This document shows, piece after piece, positions 4,800-56,872 of a stretch of DNA of 64,000 nt. Under the pieces are notes generated by a model. That model was given only the letters and a program-made list of their open reading frames with translations, searched no databases and was not told where the DNA came from. The stretch lies in the sequence record PZ452594.1; one strand, given 5' to 3'. The translations under genes and the position numbers were made by a program. The first letter of the stretch is position 1. Each line of letters opens with the position of its first letter. The DNA comes from a phage.

Positions 4800-5357
4800 T
4801 TAAATGGAAAGATACCATCCGTTGTAGTTGCTTTTTCTTACAACCTTACGAAGGTCTTCTCTGTCACCGATGAACTTCGGAGTGTACTGGATGACACCTG
4901 GATGAATTTCTTTAGTGTTGAATATAATTATACAGTCAGCGACTTGATGATTCAGAATGGGCCCTAGATTTATTCCAGAACCGTATGGATACTCTCCGCT
5001 GCATCCGGTTGTTACCGAAATCCATCGTGAGTCAGTTTGATGTGTTTTGACTTCTACACGAAGCCCACAGTATTTTGGATGCGCCAATACATCCCATGCA
5101 TATGTATATGGGTCATTAACATCCTCTTGGCCTTTGTTAACATACCCGCTTAGCCAATCTGCTACAAAAAATTCTGCGTACACAGCGATACGACATCTTT
5201 CAATAACTTCTGCTTTATCCTGGTTCGGGTTTTGTTTTAAAGAGTATCTTGCTGTATCAGCAATTTTGGCCTTCATTTCACTAGTCAAGTCACTGTTCGA
5301 TAGGGTAAATGTCGGAATCTGAAATAGTCTCTGCAAACCCGGATTCGTTTTCTGCAT
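4800..5357 (-). CDS. denB: endonuclease IV DenB (185 aa)
   Basis: 185-aa product, position between rIIB and ndd, sequence recognised as T4 DenB. Confidence 0.85.
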   Translation of the reverse strand: MQKTNPGLQRLFQIPTFTLSNSDLTSEMKAKIADTARYSLKQNPNQDKAEVIERCRIAVYAEFFVADWLSGYVNKGQEDVNDPYTYAWDVLAHPKYCGLRVEVKTHQTDSRWISVTTGCSGEYPYGSGINLGPILNHQVADCIIIFNTKEIHPGVIQYTPKFIGDREDLRKVVRKSNYNGWYLSI

Positions 5358-9010: not shown

Positions 9011-9040
9011 ATTATACCACATCCTTGTGGTAAAGTAAAC
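9011..9040 (-). promoter_or_regulatory. T4-type early promoter upstream of rIIA.1/rIIA
   Basis: GTTTAC (rc 9035-9040), 18-nt spacer, TATAAT (rc 9011-9016); overlaps gene 39 stop. Confidence 0.45.
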
Positions 9041-10860
9041 TACTGGCTCATCCATTCTTTGCGAAGGTCAGCATTATCTCCCATGAGCATTTCAAAAAGC
9101 TCTTTCCAGTTCTCAGGAAGTTTAACAACATCATATACTGGGTTTTGAATCATCTCACGATATTCAGATTTTTCTAAAGAGCCAAGTCCCTTAATATAAC
9201 GGATGCTATGTTTAGGTAGAGCATCTTTAGCACTCTCATATTCAGCGACTGTATAAAACCATTCTTGTTTTTTACCGACCTGAGCGATGATTACAGGAGT
9301 TTTGACAAAGCGAATTCTTCCTTGTTCAAACAGTTCTGGCCAATTACTAAAAAATCCGAGCAGAGAAGGATAAATGCTTCCTAGACCATCATGGTCAGCA
9401 TCAGTCATAATAGCAATATTATGATAATTCAAGTTTTCAGCTTTTTCACCGAGAACTAGACCAGTGATTGCGCAAATATCAAATAGTTCTTTGTTTTTAA
9501 GCATATCTGCATAAGACATACCCCAACTGTTGAGAACTTTACCACGTAATGGATAACCACCATGAAGTTCTTTATCACGAACATCAATAAGATATCCGAT
9601 AGCAGAATCACCCTCAGTCAAGAAAAGAGTAGTGTCAGCATCTTTACCACAAAGATTCGCTTTGATATGTTTATGAACCTTAGCTTTAGAAGCCTTTTTA
9701 GCTGCTTTAGTTTCTGCTGCTTTTTCTGCCGCCAATTTACGAGCCAAAGCAGCTTCGATAATCGGCATTAGAATTGCTTCATTATTTAGAATAGCACGTG
9801 AAATCTTTTTAGCATCAAGCTGAATATGACTACGGATTTCACCAAATGGAGAAGTCAAACGCTCTTTAGTTTGAGAATCAAATCGCATGTTTTTCATATC
9901 ACGAACAAACATAACGATAGTCAAACATTCTTTGACACGCGCTTTAGTCACATCAATTTTGAACTTACGTTTGATTTGTGGAATAAGGTCTTCACAAATA
10001 TCATCCATAACACAGTCAATGTGATGGCCACCATTCTTAGTGTGGATGTTATTCACATAAGTTAATTGACGAAATCCATCCGGTGAACGACCAACCGCAA
10101 TAGAACAATTTTCTTGTTCTTGAACGATAGCATGCTCATCATATTGGCGTGCATATTTCTTAAAATTGCCCTGAACCTTTTTACCATTAAAGGTAAATTG
10201 AATATCAGGATAAACAACAGCAAGTGTCTGGAGACGATCTAGTGTAATGTCAAGATAAACTTGGGACAGCTCATTAGTTTCAAATGACATAAAATCAGGA
10301 ATGAAAGTAACACGAGTTCCTTTCCATTTTCCTGGAATAGTTTCCCATGATTTATTTTCCATGCCATTTGAACAACGAACTACAATATTATTTTGACCAT
10401 CGCCAGTTTCACCGACAAACATCACAGAAAAAATGTTAGTTAAACTAGAACCAACACCATTCATACCACCGGTGACACGTTCTTTATCATCACCAAAGTT
10501 ACCACCCGCTTTTGGAATAGTCCAAGCAGCAACTGGACCAGGAATTTCTTCACCGGTAGGTGTTTTAACCATCGCTTGTGGAATACCACGACCGTTATCT
10601 TCAACTGTTACTTGATTGTTTTTGATGGTAACATTAATTTTATTCGCGAATTTAAACTTAGTACGAATACCTTCATCTACTGAGTTATCGATAATTTCAT
10701 CAATAAGCTTAACAAGACCAGGTACATACTGAACACTTTCCCATTTACCAAACAGAAAGCGCTCATGCATTTCATTAGCAGAAGAGCCAATGTACATGCC
10801 ACTACGCTTTTTGATATGTTCAATATCGCTCAGAATTTTAATTTCATTCTTAATCATCAC
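9040..10860 (-). CDS. 39: DNA topoisomerase II large (ATPase) subunit gp39, uninterrupted (606 aa)
   Basis: GHKL motif EDNGRGIP and TOPRIM LFLTEGDSA; one continuous ORF spanning what are genes 39 and 60 in T4. Confidence 0.92.
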   Translation of the reverse strand: MMIKNEIKILSDIEHIKKRSGMYIGSSANEMHERFLFGKWESVQYVPGLVKLIDEIIDNSVDEGIRTKFKFANKINVTIKNNQVTVEDNGRGIPQAMVKTPTGEEIPGPVAAWTIPKAGGNFGDDKERVTGGMNGVGSSLTNIFSVMFVGETGDGQNNIVVRCSNGMENKSWETIPGKWKGTRVTFIPDFMSFETNELSQVYLDITLDRLQTLAVVYPDIQFTFNGKKVQGNFKKYARQYDEHAIVQEQENCSIAVGRSPDGFRQLTYVNNIHTKNGGHHIDCVMDDICEDLIPQIKRKFKIDVTKARVKECLTIVMFVRDMKNMRFDSQTKERLTSPFGEIRSHIQLDAKKISRAILNNEAILMPIIEAALARKLAAEKAAETKAAKKASKAKVHKHIKANLCGKDADTTLFLTEGDSAIGYLIDVRDKELHGGYPLRGKVLNSWGMSYADMLKNKELFDICAITGLVLGEKAENLNYHNIAIMTDADHDGLGSIYPSLLGFFSNWPELFEQGRIRFVKTPVIIAQVGKKQEWFYTVAEYESAKDALPKHSIRYIKGLGSLEKSEYREMIQNPVYDVVKLPENWKELFEMLMGDNADLRKEWMSQ

Positions 10861-10884
10861 TTATCCTCGTTTGGTTTCGGGAAT

Positions 10885-10909
10885 ATTATACTCCGGTAAT
10901 CATAAAGCT
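10885..10909 (-). promoter_or_regulatory. MotA-dependent middle promoter upstream of gene 39
   Basis: Minus sense aGCTTTA (MotA box), 12-nt spacer, TATAAT (rc 10885-10890); 25 nt upstream of gene 39 start. Confidence 0.45.
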
Positions 10910-10926
10910 AAAGGCCCGAAGGCCTT

Positions 10927-11187
10927 TTATTTAAAACGGATAGTCGAATCCTTGAAGAATAGACCAGAACACACGGTTCCTTCTACTTTCTGCCCAGTAG
11001 GTCCAATAGCACGAAATCCAGTATGCTGGAAATCATTTTCAGAGCAACCGAACCAGTTATATCCAGTGATTTCAATATTCGTAAAACCACTTGAAGATAA
11101 AACTTTGGTTGCATTATCAGCATCAGTACATCCTGCTAAAGACACTGCTAATACTAATGCTGCGATAGAACGATTAACATATTTCAT
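10927..11187 (-). CDS. predicted lipoprotein (~86 aa)
   Basis: Signal peptide with lipobox LAGC (MKYVNRSIAALVLAVSLAGCTDADN...); start moved to ATG. Confidence 0.55.
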   Translation of the reverse strand: MKYVNRSIAALVLAVSLAGCTDADNATKVLSSSGFTNIEITGYNWFGCSENDFQHTGFRAIGPTGQKVEGTVCSGLFFKDSTIRFK

Positions 11188-11192
11188 AATTT

Positions 11193-11564
11193 TCACTTAA
11201 ATTTAATGGCTTGAAGAAGACTAATAACTCTCAAGCGACTTCTTTCATCTTTAACTGTAAAAGAAAGAGGGTCACCAGATTTCATAGTAATGGTACATTC
11301 AAAATCAAAATCTTCTGTAACTTCTTCGAAGAAGTCAAATTCTTCATCATAAATTAGAACATTACTCTGACAACTATGAAGAATTTTTCCATCATTTCCA
11401 GATGCTGTACTAATCATTGTAACATTATGACCTTTCATATCTTCAACGATAAATTCACTAGTCAATATTACAGCATTAATAGAACTATTCCTATTACTAG
11501 CAGAAAGTAGATATTTCTGTTCTTCACCTTCACGAATGCAATATTTCTTACCGATTTTAAACAT
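11193..11564 (-). CDS. hypothetical protein (123 aa)
   Basis: ORF track; region corresponds to T4 39.1/39.2/goF/cef/motB cluster. Confidence 0.5.
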   Translation of the reverse strand: MFKIGKKYCIREGEEQKYLLSASNRNSSINAVILTSEFIVEDMKGHNVTMISTASGNDGKILHSCQSNVLIYDEEFDFFEEVTEDFDFECTITMKSGDPLSFTVKDERSRLRVISLLQAIKFK

Positions 11565-18204: not shown

Positions 18205-18327
18205 ATTTTTCTCACATCTTACGGACGGTTAACTACTTATACTATAACATTTTTACTTTAACTTGTAAACAACTTTATGTAAAAATGCTTTAAAAATTTC
18301 ATGGTATAATGAATCTAAGTCCTTCCA

Positions 18328-18930
18328 TTATAGATTAAATCCTTCAAAATCAAGAGTATAGATAGTGTATGTTGAATACTTTTTGTACTCATATCTATCT
18401 GCAATTTTAAATACACTTCCAGCTGGTATCATTACTTCTTGTTCATCTGAAACTAATTCCATATTACGATAACGATGGCTATCCGGAAACTTAAAGTTTG
18501 GATTGTATTCTTTACAGCGTAGAGCTTTTATAGCATACTCCTGGAAATTGAATACCATAGGAGCTTTGAATTCAAAAATAACCTGTGTGTTATACTCTAA
18601 ACCGGAAGCAAAATGTAGAGCTATATTTTTATCATATGAAGCTGATACGACTTTATCAAATGTAATAATATCAATTCCTTGATTTAACACCTGCTTAGTC
18701 TCAGCTGGAACACCTCTCCAAAGAGGTTTATCGTTTGGAACCAAACGAGATTTGATTATTTCATTTAACCAAGTATGGTCATCTGGTTTGTTGGTAATAC
18801 AATGAATTAAAAGTTCAATTTCAGATAAATTAAACCCTTCAGAAAGTAATTCTTCACGAATAGAAGCACGCACCGATGCATCCATTGATTTTATTTTAAA
18901 ATCTTTTAGTTGCATTACTGAGTATTTCAT
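18328..18930 (-). CDS. modA: ADP-ribosyltransferase ModA (200 aa)
   Basis: R-S-ExE ART signature (LWRG, VSASYD, EQEVMIP); 200 aa; position after srd. Confidence 0.8.
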   Translation of the reverse strand: MKYSVMQLKDFKIKSMDASVRASIREELLSEGFNLSEIELLIHCITNKPDDHTWLNEIIKSRLVPNDKPLWRGVPAETKQVLNQGIDIITFDKVVSASYDKNIALHFASGLEYNTQVIFEFKAPMVFNFQEYAIKALRCKEYNPNFKFPDSHRYRNMELVSDEQEVMIPAGSVFKIADRYEYKKYSTYTIYTLDFEGFNL

Positions 18931-21710: not shown

Positions 21711-21744
21711 TTTAAATGAAAAAAGGACTCCCGAAGGAGTCCTT
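21711..21744 (-). terminator. intrinsic terminator after soc
   Basis: Hairpin aaggactcc-cgaa-ggagtcctt (21723-21744; UUCG loop in RNA) followed by U-run (plus A-run 21717-21722). Confidence 0.6.
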
Positions 21745-33825: not shown

Positions 33826-33905
33826 AGATATTCCTTAGTTTATAGCCCGAGTTATTAGGCTCTTGATATATTATACTCCAAATAAGGGGCCGAAGCCCCT
33901 TTGCT

Positions 33906-36098: not shown

Positions 36099-36785
36099 TT
36101 AAAAATCGTGGGTAGAATCAGCTTCAAGAGCTACTACATAATTCGCGTGTTCACCTTCAAATTTAGCAGCACCTTGTTTACCTTTTGCCCAGAGCAGAAG
36201 TTTATAATTTCCTGGTTGCATTTTCATATTTGCCATATTGATAATGAAATTAAATGTATTTTCACCATCATAATCACCAAGAGTCAAAGAATATTTAACA
36301 CGGGTCAAAGCAGAATCTTCCACTTTATTAAAACCGTTAATTACGATTTTACCTTCTTTTACTGTGATAGCAATTGTATCAATCTGCAGACCGCGAGATA
36401 CACGCAACAGCTGCTGAAGGTCTTCAGCTTTAATTTCAGTAACAACAGATGCTACCGGGAATGGAATTGGTTTATTAGGAGCAACTACTGTACTCGGATC
36501 GGCTGCTGGCCAAAAAATTGTTGAACGAGCATCAGCAATTTTAATATTTCCATCTTCTGACTGGGAAATTTCTGCATCATCATTAACTAGGGACAGAATA
36601 CCGAGAAAACCGTTCAAATCGTAAATCGCTACATCAAAATCAATAGTGTCAGAAATATTTGCTTCTGCATAAGTTGTACCATTAACTGCGCGAGTCATAA
36701 TAAATTGACCGGATTTAAGCATAATACCAGAGTTAATAGTAGCGAAATTTTTAAGCAGAGCAGTAGTATCTTTAGACAGTTTCAT
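36099..36785 (-). CDS. 45: sliding clamp gp45 (228 aa)
   Basis: MKLSKDTTALLKNFATINSGIMLKSGQFIMTRAVNGTTYAEANIS... recognised as T4 gp45. Confidence 0.93.
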   Translation of the reverse strand: MKLSKDTTALLKNFATINSGIMLKSGQFIMTRAVNGTTYAEANISDTIDFDVAIYDLNGFLGILSLVNDDAEISQSEDGNIKIADARSTIFWPAADPSTVVAPNKPIPFPVASVVTEIKAEDLQQLLRVSRGLQIDTIAITVKEGKIVINGFNKVEDSALTRVKYSLTLGDYDGENTFNFIINMANMKMQPGNYKLLLWAKGKQGAAKFEGEHANYVVALEADSTHDF

Positions 36786-40248: not shown

Positions 40249-40483
40249 CCTTAATACAAGATACAGCCATATCTCGTAATGATTTAGGTGTGTCATTATC
40301 TAAAATGTTGAAGTTAAAAGATACAGCCCAGTCAGTGCAGACCGTGACCTTTTTAATACAATTATCTTCAACCTCTAACGGTTCAAACCAATATTCAATA
40401 ATTTCTTTATGCCCAATATCATCTTTTACTTCGCATTCAAAATGCTGACTCATCATAACATTTTTAAATTCATCAAAAGTCAT
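40220..40483 (-). CDS. hypothetical protein (87 aa)
   Basis: ORF track; ATGA overlap with gene 47 stop. Confidence 0.45.
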   Translation of the reverse strand: MTFDEFKNVMMSQHFECEVKDDIGHKEIIEYWFEPLEVEDNCIKKVTVCTDWAVSFNFNILDNDTPKSLRDMAVSCIKDAYCEVFDI

Positions 40484-41499
40484 TGTGTTGCCTCTACATA
40501 TAACTGATTTGCATATTGAATAAGTGCTTCACGGTCAGAATCAGTGATGTCTGGAATTGCATTAATGTATTCTTCCATCAACGTCTGAAGCGATTGAACT
40601 TCAACTTCTTCACTGTCATCTGACTCGACAGAGTTATCAATCTTTGACACAACTCGTAACGAATGCACAACTTTTTCTAGTTCAGATTCGAACTTCGTCA
40701 GATTTTTGTCTACTTCAGTTACTATAACACGTACTGATAGATTTGTAAAATCTTTATAGTCAATTTTTCCTTTAAATGGATAATGAATTCTACGGTGCCA
40801 GGTAGTGTTGTTTGGAATAAATTCCATTCGTTCTGTTTCTGTATCAAACATCCAGAACCCGCGAGGGTCATTCTCGTCACCTGCTGTTAGTGTCCATGGT
40901 GTCCCAATATATCTGACGTTTGCAGCCTCAGAAATAGTATGGAAGTGACCAGACCACACTTCTTTATAAGTCTTAAGGAAATCAGGTTCAAGACCGTGAG
41001 ATTTCATTCCTTTATAAAAATAAAATCCATTCAGTTCCCAGTGACCAACACAAAAAGAAGCAGATGAAGTTTTGATGTGTTCAAGAATTTCACCAGTATT
41101 TTCTTCGCACATCCAAGGAATTAAATCAATCAAACATCCGTCAAAATCTACTGTAGTAGGCTTATCATATACTTTAACATTGGGATATTTAGCCAAAAGC
41201 TCAGTAGAGGCATTTGGAGTTAAAGTATTTTTAAAGTGCATATCATGGTTTCCTACAACAGTATGTAGGGTAATACCAGCATCATCAAGCATTTGAACTA
41301 TTTCACGAGCAAACTCCATAGTTTTATGCGTGATTGCTTTTCGCACATCAAAAATATCGCCGTATTGAATCCAGGTAGTAATTCCATTTTTCTTAGAATA
41401 TTCTATTGCTTGTTTAATTCCATCCAACTGAATAGATTGAACCCACTCATCATCGGCTTTAACGCCTAAATGCCAATCACCTAAATTTAAAATTTTCAT
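40480..41499 (-). CDS. 47: recombination endonuclease subunit gp47 (Mre11/SbcD-like, 339 aa)
   Basis: Phosphoesterase motifs LNLGDWHLG, GNHD, GHFH; recognised as T4 gp47. Confidence 0.93.
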   Translation of the reverse strand: MKILNLGDWHLGVKADDEWVQSIQLDGIKQAIEYSKKNGITTWIQYGDIFDVRKAITHKTMEFAREIVQMLDDAGITLHTVVGNHDMHFKNTLTPNASTELLAKYPNVKVYDKPTTVDFDGCLIDLIPWMCEENTGEILEHIKTSSASFCVGHWELNGFYFYKGMKSHGLEPDFLKTYKEVWSGHFHTISEAANVRYIGTPWTLTAGDENDPRGFWMFDTETERMEFIPNNTTWHRRIHYPFKGKIDYKDFTNLSVRVIVTEVDKNLTKFESELEKVVHSLRVVSKIDNSVESDDSEEVEVQSLQTLMEEYINAIPDITDSDREALIQYANQLYVEATQ

Positions 41500-41634
41500 A
41501 TATCAAGAACCGTCATTGAAATGCAAAATAAAATTATTGAAATAAATCCATCTGGAGTGCTAAAGAACCCAATCCAACATGCTCTAGTGAATAGATAAAA
41601 TGCAAGAAAAAGTATCACATATCCAAGAAATATC

Positions 41635-41659
41635 ATTATATCAAACTCCGTATAAAGCT
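41635..41659 (-). promoter_or_regulatory. MotA-dependent middle promoter upstream of gene 47
   Basis: Minus sense aGCTTTA (MotA box), 12-nt spacer, TATAAT (rc 41635-41640); adjacent to CUUCGG hairpin 41660-41677. Confidence 0.45.
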
Positions 41660-41675
41660 AAAGGGCCGAAGCCCT

Positions 41676-42878
41676 TTATTTTGTAATAATGTCAAACTGT
41701 TCTTTAAAGCAGAAGCTTGAATCTTGATGCTGATACAAAAATTCATACGCTTTTTCTCGCTCACGGTCATAAAGAGCTCGGTCAGATGACAGTTCTTTAA
41801 TACGCTCGAATGTTGATTCCATATCATTTTCATCAAACCAAATGATACCGCTATCATGCGAGGTCAAAGGAGTATTATCAACACGGAATTTTAAATTTTC
41901 GCCAGTAGATTTCCAAAATACCGGAATTGTTCCACATGCACCAAGCTCGAGATGAGTATATTCTAAAGAACGTTGTAGATATTTTTTATCCAACTTACTC
42001 AACTGATAACCAAATCCGGATTTACTCATGCGTTCAAGCATTTCGCTATTTACATAACGGTCAAGAATTTGCGTTGGCAAATTAGGAGCAATTTTAATTT
42101 GGTCTACTTGATGAAGACGATAATATTCATATGGAATTCCCTTTTCTTTAATAGGAATGAACGCTGGAGAACGTTCCAGACCTTCCATAATAGTACTTAG
42201 TCCTGCAGGTTTAAGATGTTTTTCGTGAAAATCAAACATCTGATAAAAACCTTTCCATGTAGTCGTACGACCAATCCAACGGTTAACATTCATGTTAATT
42301 TCAGAAACATCTTTCCAGTATGTTGATCGAACCTTCGCAATATCCATAGGAGGCTGAAAGTTGTATACGGTCGGTGCTTCTTCAATATCATCAAACAGAG
42401 AAACTGTTTCTGGATACCATTCTTTCATCAGAACTTTATTAAAATCGCCATTATCAGAATGACTAAAAATAACATCAGCTCGACGAACAGTTTCTTCTAA
42501 TCCCAAATTTCGGCGCAAAGAAAGAGAAGAATGGTCATGTTGATAAACTACAACACGAACCGAAGGTTTAATGTTATCAATAATTTTTTTATAGTTATTA
42601 ATAGTGTCTTCTTCAACCGAAGTAGCAGGAACTGAATTGATAATTAGAATATCACAATCATTTACCAGCTTAAGTGTTTTATCGTATTCTTTTGCCAATA
42701 AAACCGGAATTGAAAATGATTTATAATCATGCGCGCAATTACGAGTAAATGATTTATCTTTAGCATAAACCAAAGTTACTTCATGACCATTTTTAATAAA
42801 CCAATCACGTTGCTCAAGAGAAAATTTAGTTACACCGCAACCTTCAAGACCTCGAGCCATAAAAATACATACTTTCAT
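41676..42878 (-). CDS. agt: DNA alpha-glucosyltransferase (400 aa)
   Basis: MKVCIFMARGLEGCGVTKFSLEQRDWFIKNGHEVTLVYAKDKSF... recognised as T4 alpha-gt; 400 aa. Confidence 0.92.
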   Translation of the reverse strand: MKVCIFMARGLEGCGVTKFSLEQRDWFIKNGHEVTLVYAKDKSFTRNCAHDYKSFSIPVLLAKEYDKTLKLVNDCDILIINSVPATSVEEDTINNYKKIIDNIKPSVRVVVYQHDHSSLSLRRNLGLEETVRRADVIFSHSDNGDFNKVLMKEWYPETVSLFDDIEEAPTVYNFQPPMDIAKVRSTYWKDVSEINMNVNRWIGRTTTWKGFYQMFDFHEKHLKPAGLSTIMEGLERSPAFIPIKEKGIPYEYYRLHQVDQIKIAPNLPTQILDRYVNSEMLERMSKSGFGYQLSKLDKKYLQRSLEYTHLELGACGTIPVFWKSTGENLKFRVDNTPLTSHDSGIIWFDENDMESTFERIKELSSDRALYDREREKAYEFLYQHQDSSFCFKEQFDIITK

Positions 42879-42944
42879 TTAATATCCTCTTTGTTTTGGT
42901 TTATTTTACCAAAAATTTATAAAGCAATATAGGAGCCGAAGCTC

Positions 42945-43061
42945 CTATCCGCATAATACGCCATACAGAGGCTCATTAGAACTTTTAAATTTTATGCGCT
43001 TATATTTTATAGTTCCTTCTGCTTTAGCTTTATCATGAGACTCTTTAAAGAGTCTCATCAT
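42945..43061 (-). CDS. small ORF (38 aa) whose start lies in a 24-bp perfect palindrome
   Basis: Hand-translated MMRLFKESHDKAKAEGTIKYKRIKFKSSNEPLYGVLCG; SD AGAGGAA; palindrome 43035-43058. Confidence 0.3.
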   Translation of the reverse strand: MMRLFKESHDKAKAEGTIKYKRIKFKSSNEPLYGVLCG

Positions 43062-56318: not shown

Positions 56319-56343
56319 ATTATACCATCCTTGGTATAAAGCG
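56319..56343 (-). promoter_or_regulatory. MotA-dependent middle promoter
   Basis: Minus sense cGCTTTA (MotA box), 12-nt spacer, TATAAT (rc 56319-56324); 30 nt upstream of ORF 55882-56289. Confidence 0.4.
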
Positions 56344-56344
56344 G

Positions 56345-56872
56345 TTATGCGAGTACCGTCTTTAACCGTTCTTCAAACTTCCGAAGAGTATTCTGGCGTT
56401 CAGCTCTTTGCTTTTTGTAAGTTTCAATACGCTCTGAAATGAGAGTGTATCGTTCATTTACTGATTCTTTCATAAAATCAGGAATTTCACGAGAAGCTTT
56501 AATCTCGTCAAATTTATCAATAACAGCTTGCTCTTCAGCAATTAAGTTATCATACATCAAAATATCTTTCTTGATGAACTCAATATCTTCTTGAGTTACA
56601 CGAGATAATTTAGATGCTTTATCCTTTTTGTACTGTTCGTTAGTATCACGAGACCAGTGTAATGTACGATTTTTATTCGTATTCTTATAAATTTCTACAA
56701 TACCAATCTCATCAATAATAACGATCCAATTCCAACGGGATTTGTAAATTTGTCCTCCATCAACAGTGATTTCACCTCCGATTGAGATGTCATTAAAGAA
56801 CTTGCTTTGTGCTTCAGATTTAAATTTACCATCATTGTAGTTTACCAAGTTGAAAATATCTTTAGCATTCAT
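56345..56872 (-). CDS. hypothetical protein (~175 aa), coiled-coil C-terminus
   Basis: Track ORF 56345-56932; start moved to ATG (MNAKDIFNLV...) downstream of promoter cassette, SD GGAGGAACA. Confidence 0.5.
   Translation of the reverse strand: MNAKDIFNLVNYNDGKFKSEAQSKFFNDISIGGEITVDGGQIYKSRWNWIVIIDEIGIVEIYKNTNKNRTLHWSRDTNEQYKKDKASKLSRVTQEDIEFIKKDILMYDNLIAEEQAVIDKFDEIKASREIPDFMKESVNERYTLISERIETYKKQRAERQNTLRKFEERLKTVLA

Follow-up and report, generated by a model that had tools for sequence, protein, structure and literature searches.

What is done by a hairpin joined to a MotA-box promoter in the short space upstream of gene 39 of a T4-like phage, and why does nearly the same arrangement recur upstream of gene 47? 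On the evidence given below, each site is very probably a compact intergenic regulatory cassette, in which a hairpin acting on upstream RNA is combined with a MotA/AsiA middle promoter.

The DNA analysed was a stretch of 64,000 nucleotides (sequence record PZ452594.1; hereafter the window) with a GC content of ~35%. It belongs to a T4-like phage (Tequatrovirus): in a BLAST map it was 93-98% identical to T4 over most aligned segments and collinear with T4 positions 162306-168903 followed by 1 to ~60394, and a 1-kb probe around the gene 39 site matched >500 Tequatrovirus records, nearly all at 95-99% identity. The minus strand carries all early and middle genes of the window. The phage is a relative of T4 and not T4 itself, since gene 39 is unsplit, mobB is absent and some small ORFs differ. 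Gene 39 lacks the gene 60/mobA insertion and therefore has no translational bypass element; upstream of the 39.1-like ORF there is a 123-aa ORF (11193-11564) that has no counterpart in T4.

Anatomy and promoter identity of the sites

The near-identical strings that the original prediction had reported at 10901-10929 (site 1, before gene 39) and 41651-41678 (site 2, before ORF 47.1 and gene 47) were both found there, and each site does combine a CUUCGG hairpin and a MotA box with a TATAAT that follows the box at a spacing of 12 nt. The motif anatomy was read directly from the minus strand (Table 1): site 1 is TAA-AAAGGCC-uucg-GGCCTTT-a-GCTTTA-tgattaccggag-TATAAT, and site 2 is TAAAGGGC-uucg-GCCCTTTA-GCTTTA-tacggagtttga-TATAAT. 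At site 1 the 5' arm of the hairpin starts at the last A of the TAA stop codon (10927-10929) of the upstream 89-aa 39.1-like ORF, and the T-rich 5' part of the MotA box is also the 3' arm and U-tail of the hairpin. The distance from the -10 hexamer to the gene 39 ATG is 27 nt, Shine-Dalgarno included, and stem-loop, promoter, Shine-Dalgarno and ATG are packed into a stop-to-start span of 69 nt. At site 2 the a-gt stop codon TAA (41676-41678) supplies the first three bases of the hairpin 5' arm, and the same four elements before 47.1 are packed into 39 nt.

Table 1. Positions of the genes, promoter elements and hairpins discussed in the text, numbered along the window
Feature	Position	Strand	Details
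motA gene, 211 aa	662..1297	-	98% identity to T4 MotA; Pfam MotA_activ and MotCF matched
Gene 39 (unsplit; 605 aa), large subunit of topoisomerase II	9040..10857	-	ATG at 10857 (real start); ORF 9040-10860 = 606 aa
Gene 39 Shine-Dalgarno GAGGA	10864-10868	-	
Predicted P39 transcription start, G	10878	-	homologous to T4 position 5349
P39 sigma-70 -10 hexamer TATAAT	10885..10890	-	12 nt past GCTTTA
P39 MotA box TTTAGCTTTA	10903..10912	-	core GCTTTA 10903-10908; consensus (a/t)(a/t)(a/t)TGCTTtA from PMC2988021
Site 1 C(UUCG)G hairpin	10910..10927	-	7-pair stem, -10.7 kcal/mol predicted
P43-related case, hairpin AAGGGGC-uucg-GCCCCTT	33870..33901	-	hairpin 33884-33901; TATAAT 33870-33875, 8 nt later
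Gene 47, recombination nuclease subunit	40480..41499	-	
ORF 47.1, 46 aa, hydrophobic	41496..41636	-	between P47 and gene 47
Predicted P47 transcription start, T	41628	-	homologous to T4 position 36576
P47 -10 hexamer TATAAT	41635..41640	-	12 nt past GCTTTA
P47 MotA box TTTAGCTTTA	41653..41662	-	core GCTTTA 41653-41658; overlaps hairpin 3' arm
Site 2 C(UUCG)G hairpin	41659..41678	-	8-pair stem, -12.7 kcal/mol predicted
Hairpin-plus-Mot module upstream of a-gt (T4 PmobB/P-alpha-gt.1)	42903..42948	-	hairpin ATAGGAGC-uucg-GCTCCTAT 42929-42948
PnrdC.7-type middle promoter GCTTTA-taccaaggatgg-TATAAT (site 3)	56319..56346	-	MotA box AACCGCTTTA 56337-56346, 12-nt spacer, -10 56319-56324

A third pair of MotA box and TATAAT with the 12-nt spacing had also been predicted and lies at 56319-56342 (site 3); its predicted +1 is 56312, the upstream gene ends with a stop codon at 56345-56347, two bases before GCTTTA, and on sequence reading and folding no hairpin was found there. 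Judged by their sequences, sites 1-3 correspond to the published MotA-dependent T4 promoters P39, P47 and PnrdC.7, whose start sites are given as T4 positions 5349, 36576 and 53325 in Table 1 of Hinton 2010 (PMC2988021), a table of 58 identified T4 middle promoters; the mapping sources cited in that paper are Guild et al. 1988, Hsu & Karam 1990 and Truncaite et al. 2003. From hairpin to start codon, sites 1 and 2 are exactly the T4 sequence, and at site 3 the promoter elements are identical and a single substitution lies far upstream of the box. Promoter identity and start sites are established by the published T4 work on identical sequence, so that the MotA-dependent 5' ends by which the original prediction was to be checked have already been obtained in T4.

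The middle promoter consensus is (a/t)(a/t)(a/t)TGCTTtA at 12 +/- 1 bp from TAtaaT (PMC2988021); at the three sites A or C stands before GCTT where the consensus has T, a departure that the published tolerance allows. All 58 listed promoters were extracted from the T4 sequence for -10 placement, and in most of them, P39, P47 and PnrdC.7 included, the hexamer was located at -12 to -7 of the listed start. A strict search of the T4 minus strand for GCTT(T/C)A-N11-13-TATAAT gave nine matches, eight of which are known middle promoters. In 10885-10930 and 41635-41680 a sigma-70 scan called no -35/-10 promoter. Neither promoters nor terminators are annotated in the GenBank records of T4, and a literature search for T4 5'/3'-end transcriptomics gave nothing usable. 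The motA gene that had been placed in the window is indeed present, with two Pfam MotA domains (Table 1), and asiA is expected to the left of the window start, outside the window (T4 160878-161150, the window beginning at T4 162306). MotA dependence in the window phage would be carried over from T4 by analogy.

The ATG of 47.1 (41634-41636) lies inside TATAATG and overlaps the P47 -10, and a GGAG (41646-41649) in the promoter spacer stands at Shine-Dalgarno distance from it. The predicted P47 start is 8 nt downstream of the A of this ATG, so that full-length 47.1 would be translatable only from RNA reading through the hairpin. The 47.1 of RB69-like relatives is provided with a Shine-Dalgarno of its own, 3' of the promoter.

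The hairpins and their probable role

The first C(UUCG)G hairpins to be described were those of T4 mRNA (Tuerk et al. 1988, as recounted in PMC4371310). On the minus, transcribed strand of the window there are 13 with stems of at least 6 pairs, and most were judged intergenic by their flanks (a stop codon before, a Shine-Dalgarno and start codon after). A census of the whole T4 genome gave 90 minus-strand hairpins, in four of which, each with a UUCG loop, the distance from the hairpin end to a listed middle start is 19-33 nt (P39, P47, PmobB and P43); at random positions ~0.65 such cases would be expected (Poisson P ~0.004, a figure that ignores the intergenic preference of both features). T4 thus has three canonical hairpin-plus-Mot modules (P39, P47 and PmobB), the P43 variant, and at least seven hairpins before early-promoter-like motifs. 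The Mot box is abutted closely by the hairpin, whereas hairpins before early promoters stand 15-32 nt ahead of the -35.

The same classes are present in the window. In the PmobB-type module, TGCTTTA (42920-42926) is followed by an 11-nt spacer and TAAAAT (42903-42908), and early-promoter motifs (GTTTAC...TATAAT) follow hairpins at 21723, 58661 and 62403. The P43 site lacks a canonical Mot box at the normal distance, its sole GCTT standing 15 nt from the -10 in the region of the hairpin loop. Hairpin-plus-Mot modules flank a-gt on both sides, P47 below and the PmobB-type module above (window 41635-42948); in T4, mobB lies between a-gt and the upper module, and it is absent from the window.

A perfect Mot-type motif, aaaTGCTTTA-N12-TATAAT, was also noticed on the + strand at 18284-18310, in the srd-modA intergenic region, where a minus-strand early promoter diverges from it and it runs antisense into modA (18328-18930). 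The motif recurs in T4 (predicted +1 ~11897), which has another on the + strand near 76000; both are missing from the published list of 58 middle promoters, and both share GGTATAATG(A/G)(A/G)TCTAA with PuvsY and PnrdC.7.

In the original prediction, sites 1 and 2 were taken as a terminator or stabiliser fused to a middle promoter. The promoter part stands on the mapped, identical T4 sequences; for the hairpin, we infer termination or stabilisation, and its terminator score is weak. The tail that follows the full stem at the two sites is AGCUUUAU, or UUUAGCUUUAU when only the G-C stem is counted. Neither hairpin was called in a simple terminator scan of the minus strand, and a search of the whole window with Rfam at gathering thresholds found no RNA family. 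An ARNOLD terminator is annotated at the site 1 hairpin in MK373786, and a 'terminator' at the site 2 hairpin in MH992510 and LR215722. A rough score of the d'Aubenton-Carafa type, computed with modern energies and only indicative, was ~-13 for the T4-type P39 and P47 hairpins, below the classic threshold, +8 to +11 for relatives with a TTTTT run, and +33 to +50 for hairpins before early promoters.

The hairpins are read as terminators because they stand at a stop codon, have a U-rich tail and are comparable to a PeSL stem-loop with terminator activity. Because the scores are weak and T4 middle genes are also expressed by extension of early transcripts (PMC2988021), the T4-type hairpins are probably leaky terminators and/or 3'-end stabilisers. 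A possible but doubtful alternative is that the hairpin brings about no useful termination and only shields the 3' ends of processed upstream mRNA against exonucleases or serves to nucleate folding, with tight intergenic packing accounting for its proximity to the promoter. The weak score and the interrupted U tract of the T4-type phages would suit this alternative, but canonical U runs (UUUUUGCUUU) and positive scores are found for the orthologous modules of relatives, and several annotation pipelines call terminators here. The early-transcript extension just mentioned, and the read-through RNA that 47.1 needs with its start codon upstream of the P47 start, could likewise be accommodated by a hairpin that does not terminate; the PeSL stem-loops tested in RB49/phi1, on the other hand, were effective terminators, and the leaky terminator and/or stabiliser is preferred.

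Read on the + strand, the site 2 palindrome (41659-41678) is followed by TTTTGTAATA and is called terminator-like by the simple scan; the hairpin could act in both directions.

Conservation in relatives and the origin of the likeness

Tevenvirinae loci were taken from IMG/VR for gene 39 (n=56) and gene 47 (n=47), and conservation and stem covariation were observed as follows. The full module, defined as hairpin, 0-6 nt, GCTTxx, 11-13 nt and TAnnnT, was found upstream of gene 39 in 29/56 loci. A box and -10 with no upstream hairpin call were found in a further 11/56, of which eight are without an evident hairpin, one has an imperfect stem and two have the box inside the hairpin 3' arm; 16/56 have neither of these arrangements in strict form. 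Upstream of 47/47.1 the full module was found in 22/47 loci, and 11 more have the hairpin with a GCTAT variant box. In these 11, TGCTAT replaces TGCTTT after the hairpin and the -10 spacing is kept, which suggests that TGCTAT may be a lineage-specific variant of the Mot box. Since there are lineages with box and -10 but without hairpin, the parts are separable and the promoter does not need the hairpin.

Stems vary by lineage (GGCC, GGGC, GGAGC, GGAGCC, AGAGCC, GGAAC, GGAACTC, GGACC and others) and are still paired, and the loops in relatives are UUCG, UUAG, UACG, UAAC, GCAA or CUAGU. Among 24 distinct modules, both-side changes were found at 6 of the 7 stem pairs and slid controls collapsed; this set was selected for having a hairpin, so that the paired percentage is partly given by construction and the evidence lies in the diversity of paired states only. 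A canonical U run (CCTTTTTGCTTTA) is usual among the relatives. The terminator-like tail is the T-rich sequence that flanks the Mot box on its 5' side. The gap between hairpin U tail and MotA box is 0-6 nt in >50 loci.

The term 'duplicated' in the original prediction, if it is taken to mean recent copying, is not borne out by these comparisons. In distant relatives each locus has kept its own module with a stem of its own: GGCC recurs at the gene 39 locus and GGGC at the gene 47 locus in relatives with ~70-75% protein identity. In global alignments of the hairpin-to-box segments, P39 and P47 of T4-type genomes are 0.89 identical, which equals the maximum for unrelated cross-genome module pairs (mean 0.75), and in most other genomes the two modules are 0.60-0.80 identical. 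Outside the functional elements the similarity ends, the spacers and flanks being unrelated. Gene conversion between the loci, or a recent duplication, was judged unlikely on account of the locus-specific stems in distant relatives and the equal similarity among unrelated modules. We conclude that the P39 and P47 modules are best regarded as two old instances, each maintained on its own, of a composite motif under tight constraint, which would explain their likeness better than recent duplication.

It has to be weighed against this, as an unlikely reading, that the two modules are copies of one mobile cassette ('PmSL'), recently duplicated or homogenised, with the main role of providing short homology patches for recombinational gene shuffling. 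The 26-mers of hairpin and MotA box are identical at 24/26 positions, with two compensatory mismatches (GGCC/GGCC vs GGGC/GCCC), but the likeness ends exactly at the functional elements, and locus-kept stems at such protein divergence imply that each module is old. The unusual junction CCTTTAGCTTTAT is common to both modules, where relatives have CCTTTTTGCTTTA, and is the sole hint of exchange; the identity within the genome, as noted, does not exceed that of unrelated pairs. PeSL-mediated recombination is documented in RB49/phi1, PmSLs have been named in phage nt-1, and a-gt lies between two modules, one of which adjoins the mobB indel; this is the sole neighbouring indel, but mobB, as a homing endonuclease gene, can explain its own indel, and nothing in the alignments points to exchange between the gene 39 and gene 47 loci.

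A chance resemblance and motif combination in AT-rich phage DNA has next to no probability and was rejected: short motifs like TATAAT are common at ~35% GC, but the 26-mer (<=3 mismatches allowed) was found 2 times in the window against 0.00 expected, GCTTTA-N12-TATAAT 4 times against 0.06 (the fourth on the + strand, 18287-18310) and CTTCGG 38 times against 12.4, all above expectation, and experimentally mapped T4 promoters coincide with the sites. Non-chance occurrence in the window is an observation of this analysis; in a loose pattern scan of IMG/VR (CTTCGG-N5-12-GCTTTA-N11-13-TANNNT) the hits among the matches listed were scattered, probably due to chance and uninformative.

Proposed working and comparison with known systems

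In the layout behind the proposed working, the stop codon of the upstream prereplicative gene overlaps the 5' arm of the extra-stable hairpin, by one base at site 1 and by the whole TAA at site 2, and the U-rich 3' side of the hairpin runs into the MotA box, placed by position arithmetic from +1 at ~-36 to -27 and centred near -30, with TATAAT, 12 bp past the box, at -12 to -7. After infection, AsiA would remodel sigma-70 region 4 and MotA would bind both the box and sigma-70, by the sigma appropriation that is the mechanism of middle promoters (PMC2988021). Host RNA polymerase would then start 7 nt after the -10, giving middle-mode mRNAs for gp39 (topoisomerase) and for gp47/gp46 (recombination nuclease). 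Since the middle transcript would start ~31-32 nt downstream of the hairpin, the hairpin would act only on RNA from upstream promoters; as, most likely, a leaky intrinsic terminator and/or an exonuclease-blocking 3' end, it would close the upstream transcription unit yet leave room for the 'delayed early' expression that T4 is known to obtain by read-through.

Once ADP-ribosylated, alpha subunits make no further use of DNA upstream of the Mot box (PMC2988021), and the closeness of hairpin and box would fit this, since nothing would need to sit there. It seems very unlikely that the tight, conserved overlap is a coupling device and more than compaction, one in which polymerase pausing or terminating at the hairpin would be released at the MotA box, ~25 bp upstream of the start, and recycled locally into MotA/AsiA-dependent initiation, or in which the hairpin would shield the promoter from occlusion by strong early read-through.

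The promoters, the hairpin type and the idea of a composite cassette are all already in the literature, and the finding adds little beyond confirming that real regulatory elements are recoverable from raw sequence. Three modest additions can be named: the layout of hairpin, U run, MotA box and -10 is conserved, with co-varying stems, at two core-gene loci in many Tevenvirinae; the likeness of P39 and P47 would come from motif constraint and not from recent duplication; and the weak-looking terminators of T4-type phages fit the known dual expression of genes 39/47 by read-through and middle promoter.

Compared with P39, P47 and PnrdC.7 of T4, the promoters show no difference of substance: in both, the MotA box stands 12 bp from TATAAT, the genes downstream are the same and motA is 98% identical; only the surrounding genome differs (unsplit gene 39, no mobB, small ORFs). 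With the C(UUCG)G hairpins of T4 mRNA, the hairpins of sites 1 and 2 share the UUCG loop closed by a C-G pair, the intercistronic position and the transcribed strand, whereas their stems are short, with 4 G-C and 3-4 A-U pairs. Like Rho-independent terminators, they are G+C-rich, with an A run on one flank and a U-rich tail on the other; they differ in the T4-type tail UUUAGCUUUAU and in a rough score under the classic threshold, while relatives have UUUUU tails.

Two composite cassettes have been described. PeSLs are stem-loop/promoter cassettes of T4-like phages, whose stem-loops were tested as terminators in RB49/phi1 (Arbiol et al. 2010, PMC2839356), and the PmSLs of Vibrio phage nt-1 consist of a stem-loop, a TGCTT Mot box and a -10 (Comeau et al. 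2014, PMC4122927). A literature search for 'PmSL' returned unrelated papers only, and no explicit statement was found in the literature searched that P39 and P47 of T4 are PmSLs; the P39/P47 modules are nevertheless the same concept. Shared features are the stem-loop directly upstream of promoter, Shine-Dalgarno and start codon in one short intergenic space, and the presence of several similar copies per genome. The differences are that PmSLs were described in nt-1 and the PeSLs of T4/PST carry early promoters, unlike the Mot-box modules; that PeSLs and PmSLs precede ORFs of hyperplastic regions, whereas P39 and P47 precede the conserved core genes 39 and 47; and that in the latter the Mot box overlaps the hairpin U tail, with a gap of 0-1 nt, and no recombination role is evident.
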